Assembly: GCA_040882865.1 (NCBI GenBank)
Contig: JBBEAN010000003.1
Coordinates: 33,085 to 97,084 of the forward strand
DNA from: Gammaproteobacteria bacterium
GTDB lineage: Bacteria; Pseudomonadota; Gammaproteobacteria; Natronospirales; JAIVGZ01
DNA length: 64,000 nt
Reading direction: 5' to 3'
Shown here: positions 2,332 through 58,026 of the stretch, piece by piece
Layout: each line of letters starts with the position of its first letter
How positions within the stretch are numbered: position 1 is the first letter of the stretch
Notes under the pieces: model-generated
Told to the model about the DNA's origin: nothing
The model's input: the letters and a program-made list of their open reading frames with translations, nothing else
The model's database searches: none
Position numbers and translations under genes: made by a program

Positions 2332-3498
2332 TTACTGCTCACGCGCCGCGCCGATATCGCGCGGTTGCACTACGTCACCGGTCTCGTTGCCGAACGCATT
2401 GCGTTCGTACGTAATCACTGCGGCGATGTCGAGGTCGTTCAGTGTCCGACCGAATGCGGCCATCGCAGGGTTCACGCGGCTACCGTGCAGCACGATGTCG
2501 ATGTGCTCGGCGAGTCGTGTCGCGTCTGCCGACATGCTGTCGCCGGTCAGCGCCGGGAACCCCATAGCCGGCAGCCCCTGTCCGTTCGGCTGGTGGCACG
2601 CCGCGCACTGGGACATGTACACGCCCTCGCCGCGCGCCATCAGCTCACCCATTTCCCAATCACGGTCGGAAGCGAGCGCTTCCGCCTCGCCGGCCTGCTC
2701 CTCGCGGCGTTCGGCGAGCCATGCGTCGTAGTCGGCCTGCTCCATCGCGATGACGACGACCGGCATGAACGCGTGGTCGCGACCACAGAGCTCGGCGCAC
2801 TGGCCGCGGTACGTTCCGGGCACGTCGATTTTCGCCCAGACCTCGTTGATGTAACCGGGAATCGTGTCTTTCTTGACGGCGAGTTGCGGGACCCACCACG
2901 AGTGGATGACGTCGTTCGACGTCATCAGGAACCGAATCTTCTTCCCGATCGGCACGACCAGCGGGTTGTCGACGTTGAGGAGGTAATTGTCGACCTGCGC
3001 GAGGTCGATGCCCGAATCCATCTGGCGCGCCTCGTTGGAGTCCTGTGACAGGTTCGAGAAGTAGCCGAACCCCTCATCGACGTAATCGTAGCGCCAGCGC
3101 CACTGGAATCCGGTGACCTGGATCGTGACCTCGGCGTCGCCCGTGGCCTCCATCTTGATCAGGGTCTTCGCGGCCGGCACCGCCATGCCGACCAGGATCA
3201 CGAACGGGATGATCGTCCAGGCGATCTCTACGCGGAGATTGTCGTGGAAGTTCGCAGATTCGCGCTTGCCCTTGCGGTGATGGATCATCGACCAGATCAT
3301 CACGCCGAACACGATCGCGCCGATGACCACGCAGATCCAGAGGATCAGCATGTGCAAGCCGTACACCTCGTGGCTGATTTCGGTCACGCCTCGGGGCATG
3401 TTCAATTTCGATGGTGTGACCGCCCAAGCGGTACCCGCGAAGCTGGCCAACAGGCCAAACAAGCTGCACGAAGCTTGCTTCAACGTGCGATAGGACAT
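2332..3498 (-). CDS. coxB: cytochrome c oxidase subunit II with C-terminal cytochrome c domain
   Basis: Carries the CuA motif CAELCGRDHAFMP and a C-terminal heme c site CAACH. The track ORF begins at TTG 3531, but ATG 3498 gives a signal-like MSYRTLKQASCSLFGLLASFAGTAWA. Confidence 0.93.
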   Translation of the reverse strand: MSYRTLKQASCSLFGLLASFAGTAWAVTPSKLNMPRGVTEISHEVYGLHMLILWICVVIGAIVFGVMIWSMIHHRKGKRESANFHDNLRVEIAWTIIPFVILVGMAVPAAKTLIKMEATGDAEVTIQVTGFQWRWRYDYVDEGFGYFSNLSQDSNEARQMDSGIDLAQVDNYLLNVDNPLVVPIGKKIRFLMTSNDVIHSWWVPQLAVKKDTIPGYINEVWAKIDVPGTYRGQCAELCGRDHAFMPVVVIAMEQADYDAWLAERREEQAGEAEALASDRDWEMGELMARGEGVYMSQCAACHQPNGQGLPAMGFPALTGDSMSADATRLAEHIDIVLHGSRVNPAMAAFGRTLNDLDIAAVITYERNAFGNETGDVVQPRDIGAAREQ

Positions 3499-3543: not shown

Positions 3544-4245
3544 TTAAGGTTTGGGCCCAGTCTGCGCAAATCCGAGTATTCCCAGGTTGAAACGGTGTGC
3601 ATTGGATTCCGGGGTCGCGCTGGGTTCCCACGGCAATGTGGCGACGAGCGGCGCTGGCAGGCGCTCGACCAACGCGGCTATGTTCTGCTCCAAACGGCGC
3701 ATTTCCGGGTCAATGCAGTTCGCGACCCAGCCCGAAATCGTGAGGCCGGTCGCGGAAACCGCCGACGCGGTGAGGAGCGCGTGGTTCAGGCAGCCGAGAC
3801 GCATCCCCACGACGAGCAGAACCGGTAGCTTCAGTACGCGCGCGATATCTGCCATCGTGCGCTCGGGCCCGACCGGGACCAGCCAGCCACCGGCGCCTTC
3901 GACGACCATGGCGTCGCTGCGTTCGGCGAGCTTGGCGAACGCGCCTTCAATCAACGTGATATCGATTTCCACGCCGGCGTCGGCGGCTGCAAGATGCGGC
4001 GCGACCGGTTCTTCGAAGAGGTACGGGTTCAGAAAGTCGTATTCAACGGGTTGCGCGGACGCCGCCGCGAGCGCGACTGCGTCATCGTTCCGCGGGCCGT
4101 GGTTGGTCGTGACGACGCCGGCCGCGACGGGCTTCATCACGCCAACGCGGTAGCCCGCGCTCCGAAGCGCGACGACGAGCGACACTGCGGTGTGCGTCTT
4201 GCCGACGCCCGTATCGGTGCCCGCGACGAAGACGCCCGCGGTCAT
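3544..4245 (-). CDS. bioD: dethiobiotin synthetase
   Basis: MTAGVFVAGTDTGVGKT P-loop typical of BioD. It is the last gene of bioBFHCD and has an ATGA overlap with bioC. Confidence 0.9.
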   Translation of the reverse strand: MTAGVFVAGTDTGVGKTHTAVSLVVALRSAGYRVGVMKPVAAGVVTTNHGPRNDDAVALAAASAQPVEYDFLNPYLFEEPVAPHLAAADAGVEIDITLIEGAFAKLAERSDAMVVEGAGGWLVPVGPERTMADIARVLKLPVLLVVGMRLGCLNHALLTASAVSATGLTISGWVANCIDPEMRRLEQNIAALVERLPAPLVATLPWEPSATPESNAHRFNLGILGFAQTGPKP

Positions 4246-5120
4246 CGGCCCCGTACCCGGATCGATTCGACGCTGACCCGCGCTTCGGCGGGTCCCTCAG
4301 GCGCGATGGCCGTGCCCGCAGGTGGCGCGACCGCGTACCCATAGACCACCTCCCAGGTCGCCGGCAGCTTGCCGTCAATGCGGCGGCGCTCGTAGGCGGT
4401 TTCCATCGCGCTCAGCCGTCGAGGACTCGTCAGACCCAGTGGACGGCCCGCGTTCACGTTGTGGGCGCCGATTGCCTTCAGGTCGCGCATCAGGGCCATG
4501 GTGTCCGGATAAGTCACGGCCATCCGTTCGGCGTCCATCACGGGGTTCCGGAAGCCGGCGCGCAGCAGCGCATCGCCGACATCGTGCATGTCCACGAACC
4601 GATTGACGTGTACGCGGTCGTCGACAGCCGCCCAGGCTTCGCGCAGCTCGCGCAGGGTGTCGGGGCCGAAGGTCGTGAACAGCAGGCGGCCGCCCGGCTT
4701 CAGCACGCGGACGAACTCGCGGAACACCGCGTCCGGTGGCCCGAGCCACTGCAGCATCAAGTTCGAAAACACCAAATCGACACTCGCGCTTCGAAGCGGT
4801 AGACGCGCGGCATCCGCGCACACCGCGTCGAACGCCCGGAACCAGCGGCGGTGGCGGCGCGAACGCGCGGCCATCGGCTCGGCGATGTCCAGAGCGATTA
4901 CGTGCGCATGTCGGTAGCGGTCGGAAAGCGAGGATGCGCCGCGACCGGTGCCACTGCCGGCGTCGAGCACGACACGGGGTTCGATGGCCACGGTATCGAG
5001 GCGCTCGATGAGGTTGTCGAGCACCTCGCGCTGCAGCACGGCGGCCGCGTCGTACGTCTCCGCGGCGCGCGCGAACGAGCGGCGCACCGCGTCATGCCGC
5101 AGTTCGAACTCATCGGTCAT
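4242..5120 (-). CDS. bioC: malonyl-ACP O-methyltransferase
   Basis: Class I SAM-methyltransferase motif VLDAGSGTG. It sits between bioH and bioD as in bioBFHCD operons. Confidence 0.85.
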   Translation of the reverse strand: MTDEFELRHDAVRRSFARAAETYDAAAVLQREVLDNLIERLDTVAIEPRVVLDAGSGTGRGASSLSDRYRHAHVIALDIAEPMAARSRRHRRWFRAFDAVCADAARLPLRSASVDLVFSNLMLQWLGPPDAVFREFVRVLKPGGRLLFTTFGPDTLRELREAWAAVDDRVHVNRFVDMHDVGDALLRAGFRNPVMDAERMAVTYPDTMALMRDLKAIGAHNVNAGRPLGLTSPRRLSAMETAYERRRIDGKLPATWEVVYGYAVAPPAGTAIAPEGPAEARVSVESIRVRGR

Positions 5121-5877
5121 GGATGAATTCCGTCACCTGCCGCACGAACGCCGCGGGCTCATTCAGGAACGGTGCGTGCGCGGCACCGGGCGTGATGACC
5201 ACGCGCGCATTGGGCGCGAGCGCTGCAATCGCGTGCGCGGCTCCGGGCGGCGTGAGGCGGTCACGCGCGCCCGCGATGACGAGCGTCGGCGGCGAGAGCG
5301 CCGCGAGTTCCGCGCGCAGGTCGGTGTCATGCAAAATTGCGAGGCCCGCGGCGAGCCCGCGCGGGTCCGGGTCCCCGTGCTCGAACAACAGCGGCCGGAT
5401 TGCGCGCACCTGCTCGCGCGCGTGGTCGTCGCCCAGAGACTGTAACGTCAAAAAGCTCTGCACTGTTTTTCTGAAATTTGCGACGAGTTCTCGCCCGAAC
5501 CGATCGACGACTGCGACGGGTTGCGCGTGCGGCCAACCAGCGGTCGCCGTGAAGCGCGGCGTCGCCCCCACGAGCACGAGGCTCGAAATGCGTTCGACAG
5601 CGTCGAGCGCCGTGCGCATCGCGAGCAGCGCCCCGAGCGACCAGCCGAGCCAAGCGGCGCGGTCCGGCACCGCGCGCTGCACGGCCTCGGCCCAGGCCCG
5701 CAGCCCCGGCCCACAGTCGAATGCGCTGCGGCCGTGCCCCGGCAAATCGACCACGTGCACGCGAAACGATTGCGCAAGCAGGGGTACGGCATCGCCGAAC
5801 ACACCCCCGTGCAAGCCCCAGCCGTGCACGAGCACGAGGTCTTCGCCCGCGCCCGATGAGGCGACCGAGACGCTCAC
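5110..5877 (-). CDS. bioH: pimeloyl-ACP methyl ester carboxylesterase
   Basis: Alpha/beta hydrolase with LVLVHGWG and the nucleophile elbow GWSLGA. It resembles E. coli BioH, and its GTG start overlaps the bioF stop. Confidence 0.8.
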   Translation of the reverse strand: MSVSVASSGAGEDLVLVHGWGLHGGVFGDAVPLLAQSFRVHVVDLPGHGRSAFDCGPGLRAWAEAVQRAVPDRAAWLGWSLGALLAMRTALDAVERISSLVLVGATPRFTATAGWPHAQPVAVVDRFGRELVANFRKTVQSFLTLQSLGDDHAREQVRAIRPLLFEHGDPDPRGLAAGLAILHDTDLRAELAALSPPTLVIAGARDRLTPPGAAHAIAALAPNARVVITPGAAHAPFLNEPAAFVRQVTEFIHDR

Positions 5878-7025
5878 CGAAACACCCCGGCCAGTGCGTC
5901 GAGCAGCGCGTCGACTTCGTCGTCCGTGTGGGCCGCGGACAGGGTCACGCGCAATCGCGCCGTACCGTCCGGAACGGTCGGCGGGCGGATCGGCGTGACC
6001 AGGAAGCCGGCATGTTCAAGCGCCTGCGCACACTTCAGAGCCTGCGCGGAGCCGCCGACCACGAGCGGTTGGATCGGTGTGGGCGAATCGGCAAGCGGCA
6101 ACCCAAGCTGTACCGCGCCCGCGCGGAAGCGCTTCACGAGCGCGAGCACGCGCTTTCGACGCCAGGACTCCCCGTCGCTCACGCGCAATGCGGTCAGCGC
6201 AGCTGCGGCGACGGCGGGCGGCAACGCAGTCGTATAGATGTAGGTACGTGCTTGCTGGATTAGCGTCTCGATGACCTCGGCGGGACCGGCGACGAACGCG
6301 CCGAAGACGCCGAACGCCTTGCCGAGCGTGCCCATGAGTACGGGAACCTCGTGCGCGTCGAGTCCAAACTGTTCGAGCGTGCCGCGCCCGGTGGCGCCGA
6401 CCACGCCGAGCCCATGCGCGTCGTCGACGACCAGCATCGCACCGTGCGCATCGCACGCTGCCGCTAGTGCCGGCAACGGCGCAATGTCACCATCCATGCT
6501 GAACACACCGTCGGTGACCAGCAGCTTCACCGGCGCGTCTTGGTCGAGCGCGGAGGCGGCAGCCGCCGCGTCCCCGTGCGTGTATCGCTTCAGCAAGACG
6601 CCAGCCCCGCGACCTGCGTCGATCAGCGACGCGTGGTTCAAGCGGTCCTCGACGACCAATGCACCCCGCCGCGCGAACGCGTGGCCGATGCCGAGATTCG
6701 CCATGTACCCGGTGGAAAAAAGCAGCGCGCGTTCGCGACCCGTGTAGGCGGCGAGCGCGTCCTCGAGTTCGTGGTGCAGATGGTGGTGTCCGGAAACCAG
6801 ATGTGCTGCGCCGGCGCCGACGCCGTGCTTCACGGCGGCGGCCGTGAACGCGGCCACGATCGCCGGATGCGCCGCGAGCCCGAGATAGTCGTTCGAACAG
6901 AACGCAACGAGTGGGCGGCCGTCCAGAGTCATTCGCGGGCCGGCGGCGGCGTCGACTACGCGCCGGCGGCGGTACAGGCCCGCGGCTTCTCGCTCCGCGA
7001 GCGCCGCCGCCAGCGCCGGAATCAT
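5874..7025 (-). CDS. bioF: 8-amino-7-oxononanoate synthase
   Basis: 383-aa PLP-dependent acyltransferase with a TLGKAFG lysine motif. It has an ATGA overlap with bioB. Confidence 0.92.
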
Positions 7026-8008
7026 TGCGCGATGCGGTGCTTGACGGGCGCCGCCGGCGCGCCCGGTTCCGGCGTGATGCCGAGCCGCTCGAACAACGCG
7101 CGGTCGGCTTCGGTGTCGGGATTACCCGTCGTCAGAAGCTTCTCACCATAGAAAATCGAATTCGCGCCGGCAAAGAAGCAGAGCGCCTGCTGCTCGTCGC
7201 TCATTTCACTGCGCCCCGCCGAGAGGCGTACGTGGGCATATGGCATCGCGATGCGCGCGACCGCGACGAGGCGGATGAAATCGAGCGGGTCCACCGGCGC
7301 CGCGTCGGCGAGTGGCGTGCCCGGCACCGGCACGAGCTGGTTGATCGGAACCGACTGTGGGTGCTCGGGGAGCGTTGCGAGCGCGTGCAAAAGTCCGATG
7401 CGGTCAGAATCCTGCTCACCCATGCCGACGATGCCGCCCGAGCAAACGTTGATTCCGGCTTCACGGACGGCCTCGAGCGTTTTAAGGCGGTGGCCGTAGT
7501 TGCGCGTCGTGATAACTTCGCCGTAGTACTCGGGTGACGTATCCAGGTTGTGATTGTAGTAGTCGAGGCCGGCCTCGGCGAGACGCCCGGCCTGTTCGGG
7601 CGTCAGCATGCCAAGCGTTGCGCAGGTCTCGAGGCCGAGTTCGCGCACGCCGCGCACCATGGCCTCGACGACCTCAAGCTGCTTGTCTTTCGGGCCGCGC
7701 CACGCGGCGCCCATACAAAACCGCGTCGCGCCATTTTCCTTCGCGATGCGCGCTTTCTCGAGGACGTCTTCGACCGCCATCAGGGCCTCGCGCTCGAGAC
7801 CGGTGTCATAGCGGACGCTTTGTGAGCAATACTTGCAGTCCTCGGGACAGGCGCCCGTCTTGATGCTCAGAAGCGTAGAAACCTGGACCTGGTTCGGATC
7901 AAACACCGCCCGGTGCACGGTGTGGGCCCGGAACAGCAAGTCATTGAAAGGAAGGTCAAACAGCGCCTGGAGTTCCACACGGGTCCAGTCGTGGCGGGAT
8001 TCGATCAT
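7022..8008 (-). CDS. bioB: biotin synthase
   Basis: Radical-SAM motif [11 protein letters not shown], and colinear with the E. coli BioB N-terminus from MIESRHDWT.... I trimmed the track ORF (to 8146) to ATG 8008 because the extension overlaps the operator and the comF start. Confidence 0.93.
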
Positions 8009-8015
8009 GGACCGA

Positions 8016-8044
8016 ACTATGCGAACCCGCTGACCGGCTGTCAA
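8016..8044 (-). promoter_or_regulatory. candidate sigma70 promoter of bioBFHCD (TTGACA-N17-CATAGT)
   Basis: On the minus strand, the -35 TTGACA (8044..8039) lies inside the operator half-site. A 17-nt spacer precedes the -10 CATAGT (8021..8016), which ends 7 nt before the bioB ATG. No Shine-Dalgarno sequence is present. Confidence 0.4.
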
Positions 8045-8070
8045 CCGTTCGGTACACATAAGGTTTACAA
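8038..8070. promoter_or_regulatory. BirA operator (bioO)-like inverted repeat
   Basis: Read on the minus strand this is TTGTAAACC-N15-GGTTGACAG. The left half is identical to the E. coli bioO half-site TTGTAAACC and the right half matches GGTTTACAA at 7/9. It lies 30-62 bp upstream of the bioB ATG. Confidence 0.65.
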
Positions 8071-8134
8071 GTGGCGTCAACCCGCGCGTCCCTTGAGCTT
8101 GACCCTCTGACGCGCCCCGGTCCCCACTAGCGCC

Positions 8135-8806
8135 ATGTTTCAACATTACTGCGTGCTTTGCGAGGGCCTCGCCGAGGGCCGGGACCTGTGCGTCGCGTGC
8201 CAGGCTGACCTGCCCTGGCTCGGCGCATCCTGTGTGCGGTGCGCACGCCCGCTCGCGACGGCCCCGGGCGCCGCCTGGTGCGGCCGCTGCCTCAGGCGTC
8301 CTACGTTACAGGCGGCCACGCGGGTCGCATTCCGCTATGCGTTTCCGATTGATCAGTTGCTGCAGAAGCTCAAGTTCGGCGGATCGCTGCCGCCCGGACG
8401 GGTGCTGGGTGAGTTGCTGGCGCAGGCGCTTTCGCGATGCGAAGCCGGCGTCGAAGCGCTGGTGCCGGTCCCGCTACATCCAAGGCGGATGCGCGAGCGT
8501 GGTTTCAACCAAGCCGTCGAAATCGCGCGCCCCATCGCGCGTGCGCTCGAACTGCCCCTGCTCACGCGCGCCTGTCGTCGCGTCCGCGACACACCGGCGC
8601 AAAGTGGCCTCGACGCGCGTGCGCGGCGGCGCAACCCCGTCGGCGCATTCACCGCAAGCGATACAGTGCATGGCAAGCGGATTGCAATCATCGACGATGT
8701 GTACACCAGCGGCAGCACGATTGCAGCCGTCACGCACGCGCTGCTGCACGCCGGAGCGACGCGCGTCGAAGCGTGGTGCGTCGCGCGGGGCGGCACCGGG
8801 TCTTGA
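8135..8806 (+). CDS. comF: ComF family protein (phosphoribosyltransferase domain)
   Basis: N-terminal Cys pairs (CVLC...CVAC...CVRC...CGRC) plus a C-terminal PRTase motif [13 protein letters not shown]. Confidence 0.85.
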
Positions 8807-22285: not shown

Positions 22286-22575
22286 CCGCGGCTTAGAACA
22301 TGGCTCTCTTGGCTCGTGAGGCCAAAGGGCCATGGCAACCTTGCAAGGACGGCAACCGCCTGCCTTTGGCCAATCTCGCCGCGAGAGATGTCCACGCCGC
22401 GGTACCGGGCTTGCGCGAGAAGCATGCCGCGAAGCTGCGTAGCGTGGCTCGCACCTCGAAAGTGAGTCGGGTTCCCGGAGGCCACCCGTTGATTTTAAGG
22501 ACTGACAGCGAACGGCTCGAGGTGCGCAGCCCGTAGCGGCCGCGGAAGCTTGAACAGATGCGCGATAATCGCGGG

Positions 22576-23739
22576 ATGGCGCCGCTCCCCCTGACCCTGT
22601 ACGTGCACCTGCCGTGGTGCGTGCGCAAATGTCCGTACTGCGACTTCAATTCGCACGCGCTGATTGGCGACCTCCCCGAGCATACGTACATCCCGTCGCT
22701 ACTCGCGGACCTCGACGCCGAAGCCGCACGCGCCGAGGGCCGGCCCGTGCACGCGATTTTCTTCGGCGGCGGCACTCCGAGCCTGTTTTCGGCGCAGGCG
22801 ATCGGTGCCGTACTGGACCGCGCGGCCAGCCAGCTCGCGCTGACCGAAGATTGCGAGGTCACGCTCGAAGCGAATCCCGGCGCATCGGAATTCGGACGCT
22901 TCGCCGGCTATCACACGGCAGGCGTTAACCGCCTGTCGCTCGGCATCCAGTCGTTCGACAACGCGATGCTGACCGCTCTCGGCCGCATCCACGACAGCGC
23001 GGAAGCGGGCCAGGCGATTGACGCTGCAGCCCGCGCGGGATTCGCCCGCATCAACCTCGACTTGATGCACGGTCTCCCGGGCCAGACGCCGGCCGGCGCA
23101 GCGGCCGACCTTGATCGCGCGCTTGCGTACGACACCGGCCACCAGTCGTGGTACCAGCTCACGCTCGAGCCGAATACGGCGTTCCACCACTCGCCACCCG
23201 CATTGCCGGACGACGACTCGCTCGCTAGGATTCAGGACGCTGGCACCGAGCGCCTGGCGGCCGCAGGCTACGCGCAATATGAGGTGTCCGCTTGGGCCCG
23301 GCCGGGCGAAGAGAGCCGGCACAATCTCAACTATTGGCGGTTCGGCGACTACCTCGGTGTCGGCGCTGGCGCCCACGGCAAGCTCACTGGCGTGGATGGC
23401 CGCGTGGTTCGGCGTTGGAAGCTGCGCCACCCGCGTGCGTGGGCAAATCCGGCGGCACCCAAAATCGACGGCGAACAACGCCTCGACGCGCAGACGCTGC
23501 GCTTCGAATTCATGCTGAACGCGCTGCGCCTGCGAGAGGGGTTTGAGGAATCTTTGTTTCACGAGCGTACCGGCCTCGAGATTCTTTCAGATGAAACGCC
23601 ATGGCGCGAAGCGCGGACCCGCGGGCTCCTCGAATGTGTCGATCGTCGGTGGCGAGCGACGGAGCTCGGCTGGCGCTTCCTCGATGACCTGCAAACGCTG
23701 TTCCTGCCTCACCCAACTCAGGGAAATACCCTAATCTGA
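22576..23739 (+). CDS. hemW: radical SAM family heme chaperone HemW
   Basis: MAPLPLTLYVHLPWCVRKCPYCDFNSHAL aligns with the E. coli YggW/HemW start. I prefer ATG 22576 over the track start 22558. Confidence 0.92.
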   Translation: MAPLPLTLYVHLPWCVRKCPYCDFNSHALIGDLPEHTYIPSLLADLDAEAARAEGRPVHAIFFGGGTPSLFSAQAIGAVLDRAASQLALTEDCEVTLEANPGASEFGRFAGYHTAGVNRLSLGIQSFDNAMLTALGRIHDSAEAGQAIDAAARAGFARINLDLMHGLPGQTPAGAAADLDRALAYDTGHQSWYQLTLEPNTAFHHSPPALPDDDSLARIQDAGTERLAAAGYAQYEVSAWARPGEESRHNLNYWRFGDYLGVGAGAHGKLTGVDGRVVRRWKLRHPRAWANPAAPKIDGEQRLDAQTLRFEFMLNALRLREGFEESLFHERTGLEILSDETPWREARTRGLLECVDRRWRATELGWRFLDDLQTLFLPHPTQGNTLI

Positions 23740-23770
23740 CCGGCACTTGCGTCATCTCAGGTGATTTCCT

Positions 23771-23779
23771 TTATACACA
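23771..23779 (+). promoter_or_regulatory. DnaA box (TTATACACA, fits TTATNCACA)
   Basis: Read directly from the sequence. It lies upstream of the AT-rich tract in the hemW-rpmE spacer. Confidence 0.5.
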
Positions 23780-23847
23780 ACGCATCGCCGTCGAGACGTC
23801 ATCCAGCCACGCGCGTTGCGTGGCCGCAACAGTTTCACGTAGCTCGT

Positions 23848-23910
23848 CATAACTGTTTGTAATTAGAAGATAAAAAATCGTGTCGATGTTTTGACCGTTC
23901 TAACACAAAT
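23848..23910. other. AT-rich tract (about 30% G+C by hand count) between DnaA boxes
   Basis: CATAACTGTTTGTAATTAGAAGATAAAAAATCGTGTCGATGTTTTGACCGTTCTAACACAAAT has 19 G/C of 63 nt, inside a window that is about two-thirds G+C. Confidence 0.6.
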
Positions 23911-23947
23911 GGCACGCGGACGCGGACTTAGCGCACCTTCGCAGGGA

Positions 23948-23982
23948 CTGTCCACAGAGATATCCACAGAAAATGTGGATAA
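23948..23982. promoter_or_regulatory. cluster of three DnaA boxes within 35 bp
   Basis: The boxes are CTGTCCACA (23948-56), ATATCCACA (23960-68) and TGTGGATAA (23974-82). The last is a perfect TTATCCACA on the other strand. The last two form TATCCACA-GAAAA-TGTGGATA. Confidence 0.7.
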
Positions 23983-24061
23983 ATCTGAACCTCGTGGCCC
24001 AGCAGGGACTTAGGGATTCTTCGTCACAAAACGCCTTATAGAGGAGCGGTAACTCTCCCAG

Positions 24062-24090
24062 TTGCTTCCCCTCGGCGCGGACCGTATCAT
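24062..24090 (+). promoter_or_regulatory. candidate sigma70 promoter of rpmE (TTGCTT-N17-TATCAT)
   Basis: The hexamers and 17-nt spacing were read from the sequence. GAGGTG lies 8 nt upstream of ATG 24118. Confidence 0.5.
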
Positions 24091-24117
24091 ACGCGGCTCT
24101 TTTCGAGGTGGTGGAAC

Positions 24118-24333
24118 ATGAAGGCCGACATTCATCCTGGGTATAAGCAAATCAACGTGACCTGCAGCTGCGGCGAGGCCTTTGTCACGCGGTCGACGCT
24201 GGGTCAGGACCTCCAAATCGAGGTGTGCTCGCAGTGTCACCCGTTCTACACCGGCAAGCAGAAAATCGTGGACACGGGCGGTCGCGTCGACAAGTTCCGT
24301 CGCCGCTATGGTGCGGGTGCGAAAAGCGCCTGA
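24118..24333 (+). CDS. rpmE: 50S ribosomal protein L31 (Zn-ribbon, C+ type)
   Basis: [49 protein letters not shown] is canonical L31 with both Cys pairs. Confidence 0.97.
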
Positions 24334-25121
24334 TGCCGTCAGGCACAGCCGTGCTGCACGCGACAGGCGCCTTCGGGCGCCTGTTTGCGTTATGGCTGTT
24401 AGGCTGCGCGGCCGTCGTCGCCGACCCGTGTCTCGCGCCCCCGATGGCCGAGACTGTCGAGGTTCGGCGTGTCGTGGACGGTGACACGCTGCTGCTCAAC
24501 GATGGTCGCCGCGTGCGCATGGTCGGTCTCGACGCTCCGGAGCTCGGGCGCGACGGCACGCCACACGCACCTTACGCCCTCGAAGCGCGTGCGCACCTCG
24601 TTACGCTCGTCGAACTCGCGAACGGCCAAGTCTTTCTGAGTGGTGACGCGCTCGATCGCTATGGTCGCGTACTCGCCGTCGCGTACAGCGAGCGTCACGG
24701 TGACCTCGCGGCGCACCTGCTGCGCAATGGGTTTGCGTTTGTCGCGCCGGTGCCACCGAACCTCACGGGGTCACCCTGCCAGCGAACCGCAGAGCGGCAA
24801 GCACGCGACGCGGGCGTTGGGGTGTGGCGCGACGGCGCTGTGCCGGTCGACGCTACGCAGCTGAACGCCACGGGTTTCGCGGTTGTCCGCGGCCGGAGCG
24901 GCGACTGGACGGTGCGCCGCGAAGATCGCCTGTTGTCATTCCGAGGCGGCTTCAGGGTTCGTATCCGCAACACCGATGCCGAGCGCTGGTTCAACGACAT
25001 CGATTTCGAGCGATACGCGCGCGCGCAGGTCGAAGTACGGGGATGGGTCCATCCGTGGGGTCGCGGCGGTCGTGCGATCACCGTCCAGCATCCGGCCGCA
25101 ATTGAAGTGGTCACCGACTGA
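24333..25121 (+). CDS. thermonuclease (staphylococcal nuclease-like) family protein, secreted
   Basis: Signal-like N-terminus followed by the SNase core VVDGDTLLLNDGRRVRMVGLDAPE ... DRYGRVLA ... LLRNGFA. ATG 24333 overlaps the rpmE TGA, and an extra C-terminal domain of about 110 aa is present. Confidence 0.8.
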   Translation: MPSGTAVLHATGAFGRLFALWLLGCAAVVADPCLAPPMAETVEVRRVVDGDTLLLNDGRRVRMVGLDAPELGRDGTPHAPYALEARAHLVTLVELANGQVFLSGDALDRYGRVLAVAYSERHGDLAAHLLRNGFAFVAPVPPNLTGSPCQRTAERQARDAGVGVWRDGAVPVDATQLNATGFAVVRGRSGDWTVRREDRLLSFRGGFRVRIRNTDAERWFNDIDFERYARAQVEVRGWVHPWGRGGRAITVQHPAAIEVVTD

Positions 25122-46883: not shown

Positions 46884-47618
46884 TTGGCCATGCCTGACTT
46901 TCCGAAGCCTGATCATAACCAGCTCCTCTCGACGCTCACCGCGGCAGAGCGCGAACGTCTGTATCCGCACATGGAACTCGCGACCGTTTCATTGGGCCAA
47001 GTGCTACACCAACGCGGCGCCGACATAGAAGATGTCTATTTTCCGACAGACTCAATCGTTTCATTGCTGTACGTGATGGACGATGGTGCCTCCGCCGAAA
47101 TCTCAGTGGTCGGGCACGAGGGTGTCACGGGCGTCGGTCTGTGTATGGGCGCCGATATCTCCGCGAGCCAGGCGGTCGTCCAAAGCGCCGGCTATGCGTA
47201 TCGACTGCCGGGCAGCGTCCTGCGCGATGAGTTCCGCCGTAACGGCAGCCTCCATGACTGGATTCTGCGCTACTCACAAGCGCTGCTCGCGCAGATCGCG
47301 CAGACCGCGGTCTGCAACCGCCACCATACGGTCGACCAGCAACTGTGTCGCTGGGTGTTGTTGTCGCTCGACCGGCTGCCGACCAACAAACTGATCATGA
47401 CGCAACAACTCATCGCGAATATGTTGGGCGTACGTCGCGAGGGTGTCACCGAAGCGGCTGGCAAGTTGCAGAAGCTCGGCGTCATCCGATACAGCAGAGG
47501 ACGCATCACGGTGATCGACCGACCCCAGCTCGAAGCACTCTCATGCGAGTGTTACTCGGTGGTGAAGCGAGAGTTCGACCGGCTCGTCGCCACCCCGTAT
47601 ATCCGACAATCCGCCTGA
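46884..47618 (+). CDS. Crp/Fnr family transcriptional regulator (paralog 1)
   Basis: cNMP-binding-like barrel (VYFPTDSIVSLLYVMDDGASAEISVVGHEGVTG) plus a C-terminal HTH (MTQQLIANMLGVRREGVTEAAGKLQKLGVI). It ends with SCECY. Confidence 0.88.
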   Translation: MAMPDFPKPDHNQLLSTLTAAERERLYPHMELATVSLGQVLHQRGADIEDVYFPTDSIVSLLYVMDDGASAEISVVGHEGVTGVGLCMGADISASQAVVQSAGYAYRLPGSVLRDEFRRNGSLHDWILRYSQALLAQIAQTAVCNRHHTVDQQLCRWVLLSLDRLPTNKLIMTQQLIANMLGVRREGVTEAAGKLQKLGVIRYSRGRITVIDRPQLEALSCECYSVVKREFDRLVATPYIRQSA

Positions 47619-47628
47619 GGAAGATTCG

Positions 47629-48354
47629 ATGCCATCACATTCTCCCCACAATCACTTGCTCGATGCGCTGACAATCGACGAGAAGGACCGCCTGTTTCCG
47701 CACCTGGAATGGGTGCCGCTCGGACTCAGTGAGGTCCTGTATGAAACGAATAAGAAGCAGCACTGCGTCTATTTTCCGACCAGCGCAATCATCTCGCTGC
47801 TTTACGTGACCGAGGACGGTGCCTCGGCGGAAATCTCGATGGTCGGTAGCGAGGGCATGATTGGCATCGCACAGCTGACCGGTGACGGCACCATGCCGAA
47901 CCGTGCGGTCGTGCACAGCGCGGGCCATGCTTACCGCATCAAGGGTCACCTGTTGAAGCGAGAATTCTCCCGCAAAGGTCGGTTGCACGACATGTTGCTC
48001 CGCTACTCACAAACGCTGTTCGCTCAGACCGCGCAAACCGCCATGTGCAACCGTTTCCATACGGTGGACCAGCAACTCTGCCGCTGGCTGTTACTGTCAT
48101 TTGACCGGCTCGGCACCGATGAAATGGTCATGACCCAGGAGTTGATCGCAAACATGCTTGGCGTTCGCCGCGAGGGCGTCACGGAAGCGGCCGGCAGACT
48201 GCAGAAGGCGAACGTGATTCGCTATCGACGCGGACATATCCAGATGCTCGACCGTCTGCGGCTGGAGAAAAACTGCTGTGAGTGTTACGAGGCCGTCAAA
48301 GTCCAGACCGCGCGCTTGCTCGACATGAATCTACTGGACATGACTCAGCAGTAG
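47629..48354 (+). CDS. Crp/Fnr family transcriptional regulator (paralog 2)
   Basis: Colinear with paralog 1 and roughly half identical by eye. It has the same HTH and a CCECY motif near the C-terminus. Confidence 0.88.
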   Translation: MPSHSPHNHLLDALTIDEKDRLFPHLEWVPLGLSEVLYETNKKQHCVYFPTSAIISLLYVTEDGASAEISMVGSEGMIGIAQLTGDGTMPNRAVVHSAGHAYRIKGHLLKREFSRKGRLHDMLLRYSQTLFAQTAQTAMCNRFHTVDQQLCRWLLLSFDRLGTDEMVMTQELIANMLGVRREGVTEAAGRLQKANVIRYRRGHIQMLDRLRLEKNCCECYEAVKVQTARLLDMNLLDMTQQ

Positions 48355-56569: not shown

Positions 56570-57277
56570 ATGCAGAACCGCCTGTTAGCAGCCCTGCCGC
56601 CGGATGAGTCCGCGCGTCTAGATCCGCACCTCACACTGGTGCCCATGACGCAGGGCATGGTCATCGACGACGCCGAGGACCATCTGTACTTCCCGGTCGA
56701 CTGCGTGGTCGCACTCCTTTACGAGCTCAGCGACGGCGCGAGCGCAGAGATTTCCTTGGTCGGCAATGAGGGCGTTGCGGGCATTGGATTATCGATCGGC
56801 GGAATCCCGACCCTGAACCGCGCCGTGGTCCAGACCGCCGGACACGCGCAAAAAGTCCGTGCGACAGTGCTGCACGAAGAATTCAACCGGGACGACAAAC
56901 TGCAACGACTCCTCTTTGGCTACACGCGCGCATTGTTCGCACAGATGGCCCAAACCGCCGCATGCAACTTGAGCCACCCGGTCCATCAACGCATGTGTCG
57001 CTGGATGCTGCTCACGCTCGACCGCGTTGTGTCGGACCGGCTCGTGATGGAACGTGACCTCGTCGCGTCCATCCTCGGCGTGCCGACGCATGAGGTCGAC
57101 GACGCGGTCGCGAAGCTCGCGCGCCTCGGCGCAGTCAGCGGTTCGCGCTCGCAAATGACCGTCCTCAACCGACCGCAACTCGAACGGCTCTGCTGCGAGT
57201 GTTATGCGCTCGTGAAGCACGAATCAGAGCGACTGTTGCACCCGGTCTCCCACCACAAACTTCGATCGATTATCTGA
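56570..57277 (+). CDS. Crp/Fnr family transcriptional regulator (paralog 3)
   Basis: MQNRLLAALPPDE... has the same architecture as paralogs 1 and 2 and carries a CCECY motif. Confidence 0.88.
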   Translation: MQNRLLAALPPDESARLDPHLTLVPMTQGMVIDDAEDHLYFPVDCVVALLYELSDGASAEISLVGNEGVAGIGLSIGGIPTLNRAVVQTAGHAQKVRATVLHEEFNRDDKLQRLLFGYTRALFAQMAQTAACNLSHPVHQRMCRWMLLTLDRVVSDRLVMERDLVASILGVPTHEVDDAVAKLARLGAVSGSRSQMTVLNRPQLERLCCECYALVKHESERLLHPVSHHKLRSII

Positions 57278-57279
57278 CC

Positions 57280-58026
57280 GTGAACAGACCCAGCGACAAT
57301 CCAGATTTCAGGCAATCAACGGCGACACCGCCGCCCCGTTTCGGGGGCGAGACATCGTCCTCGACGCTCTTGAACGAGCGCCTCGCCGCGCTGCCGCGCC
57401 ATGACCGTGACGCGATGCTCGAGCAATCCACGACCGTCGAATTGAAACTCGGCGAGGTACTCGCCGAGGCGGGCCAACCCGCGGCTTACGCCTACTTTCC
57501 CGTCGGCGGAATAATTTCGTTACTTGCGTCGGTCGACAAGAAGACCACGCTTGAAGTGGCCCTGGTCGGCTTCGAAGGGATGCTGGGGCTGTCGCTCGCA
57601 TTGGGCGCCGAGGGCGCTCCGTTGCGGGCGCGGGTCCGCGCCGCGGGCACCGCGCTCCGGATCGACGCCGCGACGTTCAAGCGTCTATTGGAGAACAGTC
57701 CGGAGATGCGTGCCGACCTGAATCGCTACGCGTGTGCCCAGCTCGCCGCAATCGCGCAGACCGCCGTCTGCACGCGCTTCCACCTCGTCGAGGAGCGGCT
57801 CGCGCGCTGGTTGCTGATGATCCATGACCGCGCGGGCAGCGACCACCTCGAGCTCACGCACGGTCTTCTCGCTGAAATGCTCGGGGTCCGCCGCAGCGGC
57901 ATCACGACGGCCGCGGGCGTGCTCCGTCAACGCGGCTTCATTAAGTACACGCGCGGCGACATCACGATCGTTGATCGGGAGGGTCTTGAAGCCGCCAGCT
58001 GCGCCTGCTATCGAATTGTTCGTTAG
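57280..58026 (+). CDS. Crp/Fnr family transcriptional regulator (paralog 4)
   Basis: Same barrel plus HTH (LTHGLLAEMLGVRRSGITTAAGVLRQRGFI), ending in SCACY. The start is uncertain. GTG 57280 lies right after the paralog 3 stop, and the track ATG 57199 would overlap it by 79 nt. Confidence 0.8.
   Translation: MNRPSDNPDFRQSTATPPPRFGGETSSSTLLNERLAALPRHDRDAMLEQSTTVELKLGEVLAEAGQPAAYAYFPVGGIISLLASVDKKTTLEVALVGFEGMLGLSLALGAEGAPLRARVRAAGTALRIDAATFKRLLENSPEMRADLNRYACAQLAAIAQTAVCTRFHLVEERLARWLLMIHDRAGSDHLELTHGLLAEMLGVRRSGITTAAGVLRQRGFIKYTRGDITIVDREGLEAASCACYRIVR

Follow-up and report, generated by a model that had tools for sequence, protein, structure and literature searches.

A conserved module with a DARS-type DnaA-box core in the hemW–rpmE spacer of an uncultured gammaproteobacterium

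The intergenic spacer between hemW and rpmE in a 64,000-nucleotide stretch of DNA from an uncultured gammaproteobacterium (the whole stretch is referred to below as the window) contains a non-coding module of about 215 bp, in which three DnaA boxes are arranged with the same core geometry, to the base pair, as in the DnaA-reactivating sequences (DARS) of E. coli. On the strength of its sequence, the module probably belongs to the DARS/datA class of DnaA-binding control elements. The reading we favour, at about even odds, is a DARS-type element in the strict sense, closest to DARS2 and located outside any origin. The original prediction had suggested a DARS/datA-like site or an origin-like element at this position; the former suggestion is supported and sharpened by the exact geometry of the core and by its conservation. 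The features of the module are listed in Table 1.

Table 1. Features of the module and its surroundings (positions in the window; offsets counted from the start of box II)
Feature	Position	Strand	Description
Whole non-coding module	23771–23982	+	Distal box, IHF-like site, Fis-like palindrome and DnaA-box trio
Distal DnaA box TTATACACA	23771–23779	+	One mismatch; 189 bp upstream of the start of box II
Tract of 30% G+C	23848–23910	.	Carries the IHF-like and Fis-like sites
IHF-like site TAACTGTTTGTAA	23850–23862	+	At −110; two mismatches to TAAnnnnTTGATW; consensus match only
Fis-like palindrome GTCGATGTTTTGACC	23882–23896	.	At −78; one mismatch to GnnYAnnnnnTRnnC; consensus match only
CTTAGC	23927–23932	+	At −33; sub-family motif; partner CTTAGG at 24009–24014 (+49)
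DnaA box III CTGTCCACA	23948–23956	+	Two mismatches; head-to-tail with box II, 3-bp spacer GAG
DnaA box II ATATCCACA	23960–23968	+	One mismatch; the same in the window and in relative L207
DnaA box I TGTGGATAA	23974–23982	-	Perfect TTATCCACA on the minus strand; head-to-head with box II, 5-bp spacer GAAAA
Probable rpmE promoter	24062–24090	+	TTGCTT-17 nt-TATCAT, then a G+C-rich discriminator; kept in relatives L207 and L209

The spacer is 378 bp long and is bounded by hemW (22558–23739) and rpmE (24118–24333). The gene order is yicC (minus strand), a PP2C phosphatase gene, rph, rdgB, hemW, the spacer and rpmE, followed by an SNase-family gene, the citrate synthase gene, the PBP1A gene (minus strand) and pilMNOPQ. 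Among the matches listed, the HemW protein is at best 58% identical to that of any species representative. The G+C content is 64% for the window, 52% for the spacer and, as had been claimed from the first reading of the sequence, 30% for a 63-bp tract within it. This tract is a stretch of predicted IHF and Fis sites and no unwinding element. The probable rpmE promoter is a neighbour of the module and lies outside it, further downstream, with about 80 bp between the core and its −35 hexamer. A promoter scan at the stricter threshold of the tool listed no promoter, the rpmE candidate included, and a terminator scan gave a single weak terminator-like hairpin past hemW. The boxes and the promoter had originally been described as separate, and the relatives bear this out: among them the promoter lies anywhere from about 41 to 135 bp from the core and the rpmE start codon about 110 to 240 bp from it, whereas the element is constant in its internal spacing.

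All four DnaA boxes proposed at the outset were verified by reading out the sequence at their coordinates, and no further box with up to two mismatches is present in the spacer. The trio reads CTGTCCACA-GAG-ATATCCACA-GAAAA-TGTGGATAA, that is, box III, 3 bp, box II, 5 bp and the inverted box I; the head-to-head pair I/II with its 5-bp gap and the head-to-tail pair II/III with its 3-bp gap together make up the DARS core arrangement. Boxes I and II, which are perfect or nearly perfect in the module, form a true palindrome, and in this they differ from those of DARS2. The claim that these boxes exceed chance holds for their clustering and not for the boxes taken singly. By exact calculation, a box-N3-box-N5-inverted box of the quality seen here is expected 3.5e-9 times per 64 kb. 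The arrangement is unique in the window even when the mismatch limits are relaxed, and across 536 kb of comparison loci the only further matches are in six related hemW–rpmE spacers. Single boxes with at most one mismatch occur 6 times in the whole window as against 3.4 expected from shuffles, which is no enrichment. Box II stays near consensus throughout: the mismatch seen in the window is absent from relative L209 and from six distant spacers of metagenome-assembled genomes (MAGs), all of which have a perfect TTATCCACA.

Beyond the trio, the module has three more blocks that keep their place. The 33 hemW–rpmE spacers were aligned first and then 82 modules from all contexts, with the offsets of the blocks counted from the start of box II. 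The trio spans −12 to +22 and was part of the pattern by which the modules had been searched for, whereas the distal box and the IHF and Fis consensus were absent from that pattern. A forward DnaA box (TTWTNCACA, at most one mismatch) lies at −194 to −187 in 58 of the 82 modules, and the IHF consensus TAAnnnnTTGATW (at most one mismatch) at −112 to −109 in 43. In the 33 hemW–rpmE spacers, TAA and TTG are the most conserved columns of the IHF-like site. The exact Fis consensus GnnYAnnnnnTRnnC is found at −79 to −76 in 35 of the 82 modules, where the family consensus is TGGtcAAAATTTgaCCAat.

The original prediction had proposed checking whether the box cluster is conserved upstream of rpmE, and it proved to be kept in both close and distant relatives with the same synteny. 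Retrieval by protein similarity is independent of the boxes and gave an unbiased sample of about ten spacers. The closest relatives share both synteny and element: L207 (HemW 86% identical), L208 (87%; the contig stops inside the core) and L209 (74%). In L207 and L209 the blocks are kept and the sequence between them has diverged. Among 80 loci retrieved with HemW, 8 have rpmE downstream. Six of these have an uninterrupted spacer, and all six, which come from MAGs of uncultured Gammaproteobacteria with HemW 52–58% identical, carry the trio and the distal box; the other two have extra genes inserted and possess neither. Thus every uninterrupted hemW–rpmE spacer obtained by the protein searches has the element, over a HemW identity range of 52–87%. 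The trio is also found in contigs whose L31 protein bears the label "Steroidobacteraceae bacterium". The element is absent from the complete genomes of Acidihalobacter ferrooxydans and of a Solemya symbiont.

A pattern scan of metagenome contigs with CCACA-N3-WTATCCACA-N5-TGTGGATAA gave at least 120 stretches, 80 of which were made into loci; since these matches were chosen for perfect boxes I and II, the conservation of the core among them is partly built in. About 30 of the 80 loci have the hemW–element–rpmE arrangement. In others the same module of about 215 bp has different neighbours, and the metagenomic loci that carry it number more than 80. Among the loci listed, it stands upstream of priA in 15 and between xseA and exbB-exbD-lpxK in 6, and further neighbours include proS, aroE, a gene for a UvrD-like helicase and one for an M48 peptidase. 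The xseA group belongs to the Burkholderiales: one of its XseA proteins matches, at 100% identity, a protein labelled Burkholderiales bacterium. The full module is present in a Burkholderiales-like contig of 3.81 Mb. The G+C content of the host contigs extends from 35% to 70%. According to rough gene calls, the orientation of the flanking genes is mixed: the 3′ end of a gene faces box I in 16 loci, and of about 60 loci that could be classified, 42 have a co-oriented gene past box I. The module is therefore independent of its neighbouring genes.

The DARS1 and DARS2 sequences were read from the MG1655 genome in the same orientation as the window. The core of DARS1 is TAATACACA-TGG-TTATCCACA-GGAAT-AGTGGATAA and that of DARS2 is TTCTTCACA-ACT-CTATCCACA-GAAAA-GGTGAATAA; in both, the III-N3-II-N5-I spacing is identical to that of the window to the base pair. 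Of five DnaA-bound regions of E. coli that were inspected, only DARS1 and DARS2 contain the trio (DARS2 twice), and datA, polA and purH have the head-to-tail pair without it. In E. coli, the head-to-head pair I/II with its 5-bp gap is the ADP-releasing part, and box III supports it in head-to-tail orientation (Sugiyama et al. 2019, PMC6868365). DARS1, located in the bioD-uvrB spacer, has a perfect consensus box II, and when the family profile was run against the E. coli test regions (about 14 kb) it was the element that scored best (E = 1e-7). Different from the module, DARS1 is active in the absence of both IHF and Fis, and a degenerate box III′ immediately adjoins its box III (PMC6868365), where the module has a distal box and a predicted bend site; the neighbouring genes differ as well. 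No DnaA boxes were found near the bioD gene of the window (3544–4245) or its bio operon.

DARS2 resembles the module more closely in its overall layout. It lies in the rppH-mutH spacer, non-coding and outside oriC, with its accessory region on the box III side, and its activity needs IHF and Fis sites (PMC4245941). The element of the window is likewise in non-coding DNA, with no skew switch and no origin-linked gene around it. The IHF site of DARS2 is at −99, in the same orientation as and one helical turn away from the IHF-like site of the module at −110. The Fis site of DARS2 is at −137 to −123, beyond the IHF site, whereas the Fis-like site of the module falls between the IHF-like site and the core, and the perfect DnaA box of DARS2 at −197 to −189 is inverted relative to the distal box of the module (−189). 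In other words, the parts predicted for the module are those of DARS2, but the two differ in the order of IHF and Fis and in the orientation of the distal box, which counts against the DARS reading. The element does not occupy the position of DARS1 or DARS2, its neighbours being hemW and rpmE. A tblastn search with E. coli MutH, RppH, PtsP, YgdQ, BioD and the N-terminus of UvrB gave no match in the 80 metagenome loci, so that the DARS2 neighbours mutH, rppH and ptsP adjoin none of them; the position of an element, it should be said, is a test of orthology and not of its kind. The hosts of the module also fall outside the Enterobacterales/Vibrio/Shewanella/Aeromonas group for which conservation of DARS2 has been reported.

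Two further observations count against a DARS assignment. The IHF-like site of the window itself has two mismatches and its Fis-like site one. In addition, the head-to-tail GAG pair is a general DnaA site rather than one specific to DARS: high-affinity DnaA binding is a general property of head-to-tail box pairs (Stringer et al. 2024, PMC11317965), and the GAG-spaced form is present in oriC, datA and DnaA-regulated promoters as well (PMC11317965). The pairs of nrdA, polA, purH and oriC are head-to-tail, 2–3 bp apart and often of the form nnnnnCACA-gag-TTATCCACA-g (PMC11317965). Different from the module, polA and purH have no inverted third box, the promoter pairs (nrdA, polA and purH) are each tied to one promoter, and oriC possesses an unwinding element and arrays of low-affinity boxes besides its pair.

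We propose how the module might work if it is a DARS-type element. As in the E. coli model, DnaA would first bind the near-consensus box II and then recruit a protomer to the inverted box I across the 5-bp gap, giving a head-to-head dimer; a third protomer would be recruited to box III in head-to-tail orientation. The DNA would fold at the IHF-like site around a bend with its centre some 104 bp upstream of box II, which could bring DnaA on the distal box (an arm of about 82 bp) beside box III (an arm of about 96 bp), with the Fis-like site on the inner arm, between the bend and the core. DnaA placed in this way would be comparable to that on box III′ of DARS1 or to the looped complex of datA. 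ADP would then leave the head-to-head pair, and the resulting apo-DnaA would rebind ATP, so that active initiator is regenerated; the effect would presumably be reactivation rather than inactivation. The host genes for DnaA, IHF and Fis were not found within the 64-kb window.

The layout of box, bend site and boxes also recalls datA, an element opposite in effect, where a complex of DnaA and IHF titrates DnaA, promotes the hydrolysis of ATP on DnaA and restrains initiation. A datA-like function for the module is unlikely in our view. The module has the kinds of parts that datA has, namely a single box, an IHF-like site 71 bp further on and boxes about 85 bp beyond that, and a family profile restricted to the upstream region aligns datA box 2 and its IHF site with the distal box and the IHF-like site. 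The order in datA is the box pair 7-GAG-2, 59 bp, the IHF site, 81 bp, box 3, 3 bp and the inverted box 4; the GAG head-to-tail pair, an IHF consensus site between that pair and a box 160–190 bp away, and a non-coding location are common to both. However, the corresponding spacings are 68 and 94 bp in datA and 80 and 98–110 bp in the module, and when the full family profile is used, alignment to datA is limited to the box pair, or to a weak one over box 2 and the IHF site. datA lacks a head-to-head pair with a 5-bp gap, the gap of its inverted pair (boxes 3 and 4) being 3 bp, while the invariant feature of the family is the very pair that defines the DARS core. To our knowledge, box 4 of datA is not among the boxes reported to be essential, and the conserved inverted box I has no equivalent among those boxes. 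An oligomer specific to ATP-DnaA would need additional low-affinity boxes, and the spacer, with its four boxes of up to two mismatches, shows no sign of them. An alternative interpretation is that DnaA at the module controls transcription of the gene next to it, which is rpmE in the window and priA or another gene at other loci, and so ties its expression to the replication cycle, as at nrdA, polA and purH in E. coli. In E. coli, strong DnaA sites are mostly box pairs upstream of genes (PMC11317965); the co-oriented gene past box I at most module loci makes such a role possible, which is a point against DARS, and at one locus (L140) box I ends only about 20 bp before the start codon of priA, itself a replication gene. 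We nevertheless consider this reading quite unlikely. The same 215-bp module stands beside many unrelated genes and sometimes at their 3′ ends, it keeps no fixed position relative to the promoter of any one gene, and the variable distance from core to promoter given above means that there is no constant helical phasing. Nor would simple promoter occlusion call for a bend site and a distal box at 189 bp.

The other half of the original prediction, a replication origin, must be judged very improbable, either as the chromosomal origin or as a second or cryptic one. It is true that DnaA boxes and an AT-rich tract are found together in intergenic DNA, and that dual origins have been reported or predicted in Pseudomonadaceae and Halomonadaceae (bioRxiv 10.1101/2025.08.05.668638). 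In the window, however, GC skew is −0.018 on either side of the element and the cumulative skew falls steadily and monotonically, with no switch of polarity. None of dnaA, dnaN, mnmG, parAB and rpmH lies in the 64 kb. The boxes number only four, with no array, and boxes II and III separate the AT-rich tract from the inverted box, at a distance of 65–125 bp, where an origin would have an R1-type box at about two turns of the helix; hemW is moreover transcribed towards the element. Box count, tract geometry and the direction of hemW run counter to criteria 2–4 of an origin-prediction paper, and the module is found at different loci in different lineages. The origin-like reading therefore fails on skew, on neighbouring genes and on the geometry of tract and boxes. 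Equally hard to credit is an RNA element, in which the hairpin TATCCACA/TGTGGATA would act in the 3′ region of hemW or in the rpmE leader. The hairpin has an 8-bp stem, and the minimum free energy of 23935–24000 is −19.8 kcal/mol (z = −2.2). A search of Rfam, over the whole window at gathering thresholds and over 23650–24200 at E up to 10, returned two chance-level matches only and thus no family, and there is no T-run past the stem. The conserved box III and distal box lie outside any helix. The arms of the stem are invariant in sequence, without compensatory changes, while the loop is free to vary, which is the pattern that a protein-binding site in DNA leaves.

The recycling of DnaA at DARS is central to the current model of the E. 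coli replication cycle, and the distribution of such elements is accordingly of interest. Conservation of DARS2 has been shown in Enterobacterales, Vibrio, Photorhabdus, Shewanella and Aeromonas at the E. coli position (Kasho 2014, Fig. S10), and as late as 2025 the conservation of DARS was summed up as "E. coli-related bacteria" (PMC11724364). In the literature searched, we found no report of a DARS-like element at hemW–rpmE, priA or xseA, of DARS outside the relatives of E. coli, or of DnaA boxes at rpmE or priA. The module thus suggests a member of the DARS group new to that literature, and its sequence points to a family that is much larger. A DARS core exact to the base pair, with predicted IHF- and Fis-type sites in register, is found here in an uncultured gammaproteobacterium of high G+C content, and it recurs in Steroidobacteraceae-like genomes, in Burkholderiales and in many marine contigs of low G+C content. 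A bolder proposal, which we put forward with reserve, is that the module of about 215 bp is ancient, is spread over Gamma- and Betaproteobacteria with loci that differ by lineage, and represents DARS in its general form. If so, DARS1 and DARS2 of E. coli would be derived versions, and regeneration of ATP-DnaA by chromosomal sites would be widespread in replication control and no speciality of the E. coli group. Control of the nucleotide state of DnaA through chromosomal DNA would become directly testable in non-enteric bacteria, and about 80 natural variants reveal which positions and spacings are constrained. The locus also carries a caution for origin-prediction tools, as a strong cluster of DnaA boxes beside AT-rich DNA may be something other than an origin.

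Two smaller sequence features remain to be described. The direct repeat GCAGGGACT that had been noticed around the cluster is indeed present, at 23941 and 24002, but it does not exceed chance: 143 pairs of 9-mers are repeated within 100 bp in the window. In L207 the first copy is intact and the second has one mismatch, and in L209 and more distant relatives the repeat is not kept; in view of the many comparable pairs and the poor conservation, it was rejected as a part of the element. As for the sub-family motif, 12 of 83 modules have CTTAG at exactly −33, and 9 of 83 have it at +49.

The DnaA-box trio of the hemW-rpmE spacer is flanked on both sides by a direct repeat, CTTAGC/CTTAGG, with a spacing of 82 bp. 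Among 83 related modules, CTTAG lies at exactly the upstream offset in 12 and at exactly the downstream offset in 9.

Features around the DnaA-box trio in the hemW-rpmE region (window coordinates; offsets counted from the start of box II)
Feature	Position	Offset	Remark
Terminator-like hairpin, weak	23744-23763		3' of the hemW stop, directly against the distal DnaA box
CTTAGC	23927-23932	-33	Upstream member of the direct repeat
CTTAGG	24009-24014	+49	Downstream member of the direct repeat
SNase-family (thermonuclease-like) gene	24333-25121 (1816-2604 of locus L082)		Start right at the rpmE stop codon

The arrangement of the trio itself, III-N3-II-N5-I, is found also on 14 viral or mobile-element contigs of IMG/VR (L216-L229), 10 of which are near-identical copies of one element, and in three contigs (L220, L221 and L227) it is embedded within long DnaA-box arrays. 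Judged from these sequences, the same DnaA-binding geometry may be used by mobile elements. The layout with the IHF-like site, the Fis-like palindrome and the distal box was present in none of the 14 contigs.

In the E. coli DARS2 region, the rppH-mutH spacer (L083), there are two clusters of the trio geometry, at 3136-3170 and 3452-3486, which lie about 316 bp apart with one perfect box in between. DARS1 of E. coli follows bioD. In contrast, the complete bioB-bioF-bioH-bioC-bioD operon of the window (3544-8146), which adjoins cox genes, contained no DnaA boxes when these were looked for.

Certain lineages, a Solemya symbiont genome among them, have up to three small genes (at least one) between hemW and rpmE, with products such as a zinc-ribbon protein and DUF3135 (comparison loci L018, L032 and L211), and the DnaA module is missing at these loci. 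Terminator-like sites, the hairpin next to hemW included, are not more numerous than in shuffled sequence. The pairing of rpmE with the SNase-family gene recurs in the relative whose HemW is 86% identical (L207). In the one at 74% (L209) the two genes are also paired, but a small gap separates them. Such a gene is an odd companion for that of a ribosomal protein.

Elsewhere in the window, no confident ORFs were obtained at 48.4-50.1 kb and 53.9-55.2 kb with the filter on third-codon-position G+C (GC3). Four genes for Crp/Fnr-family regulators are arranged as two tandem pairs, at 46884-48354 and 56570-58026.
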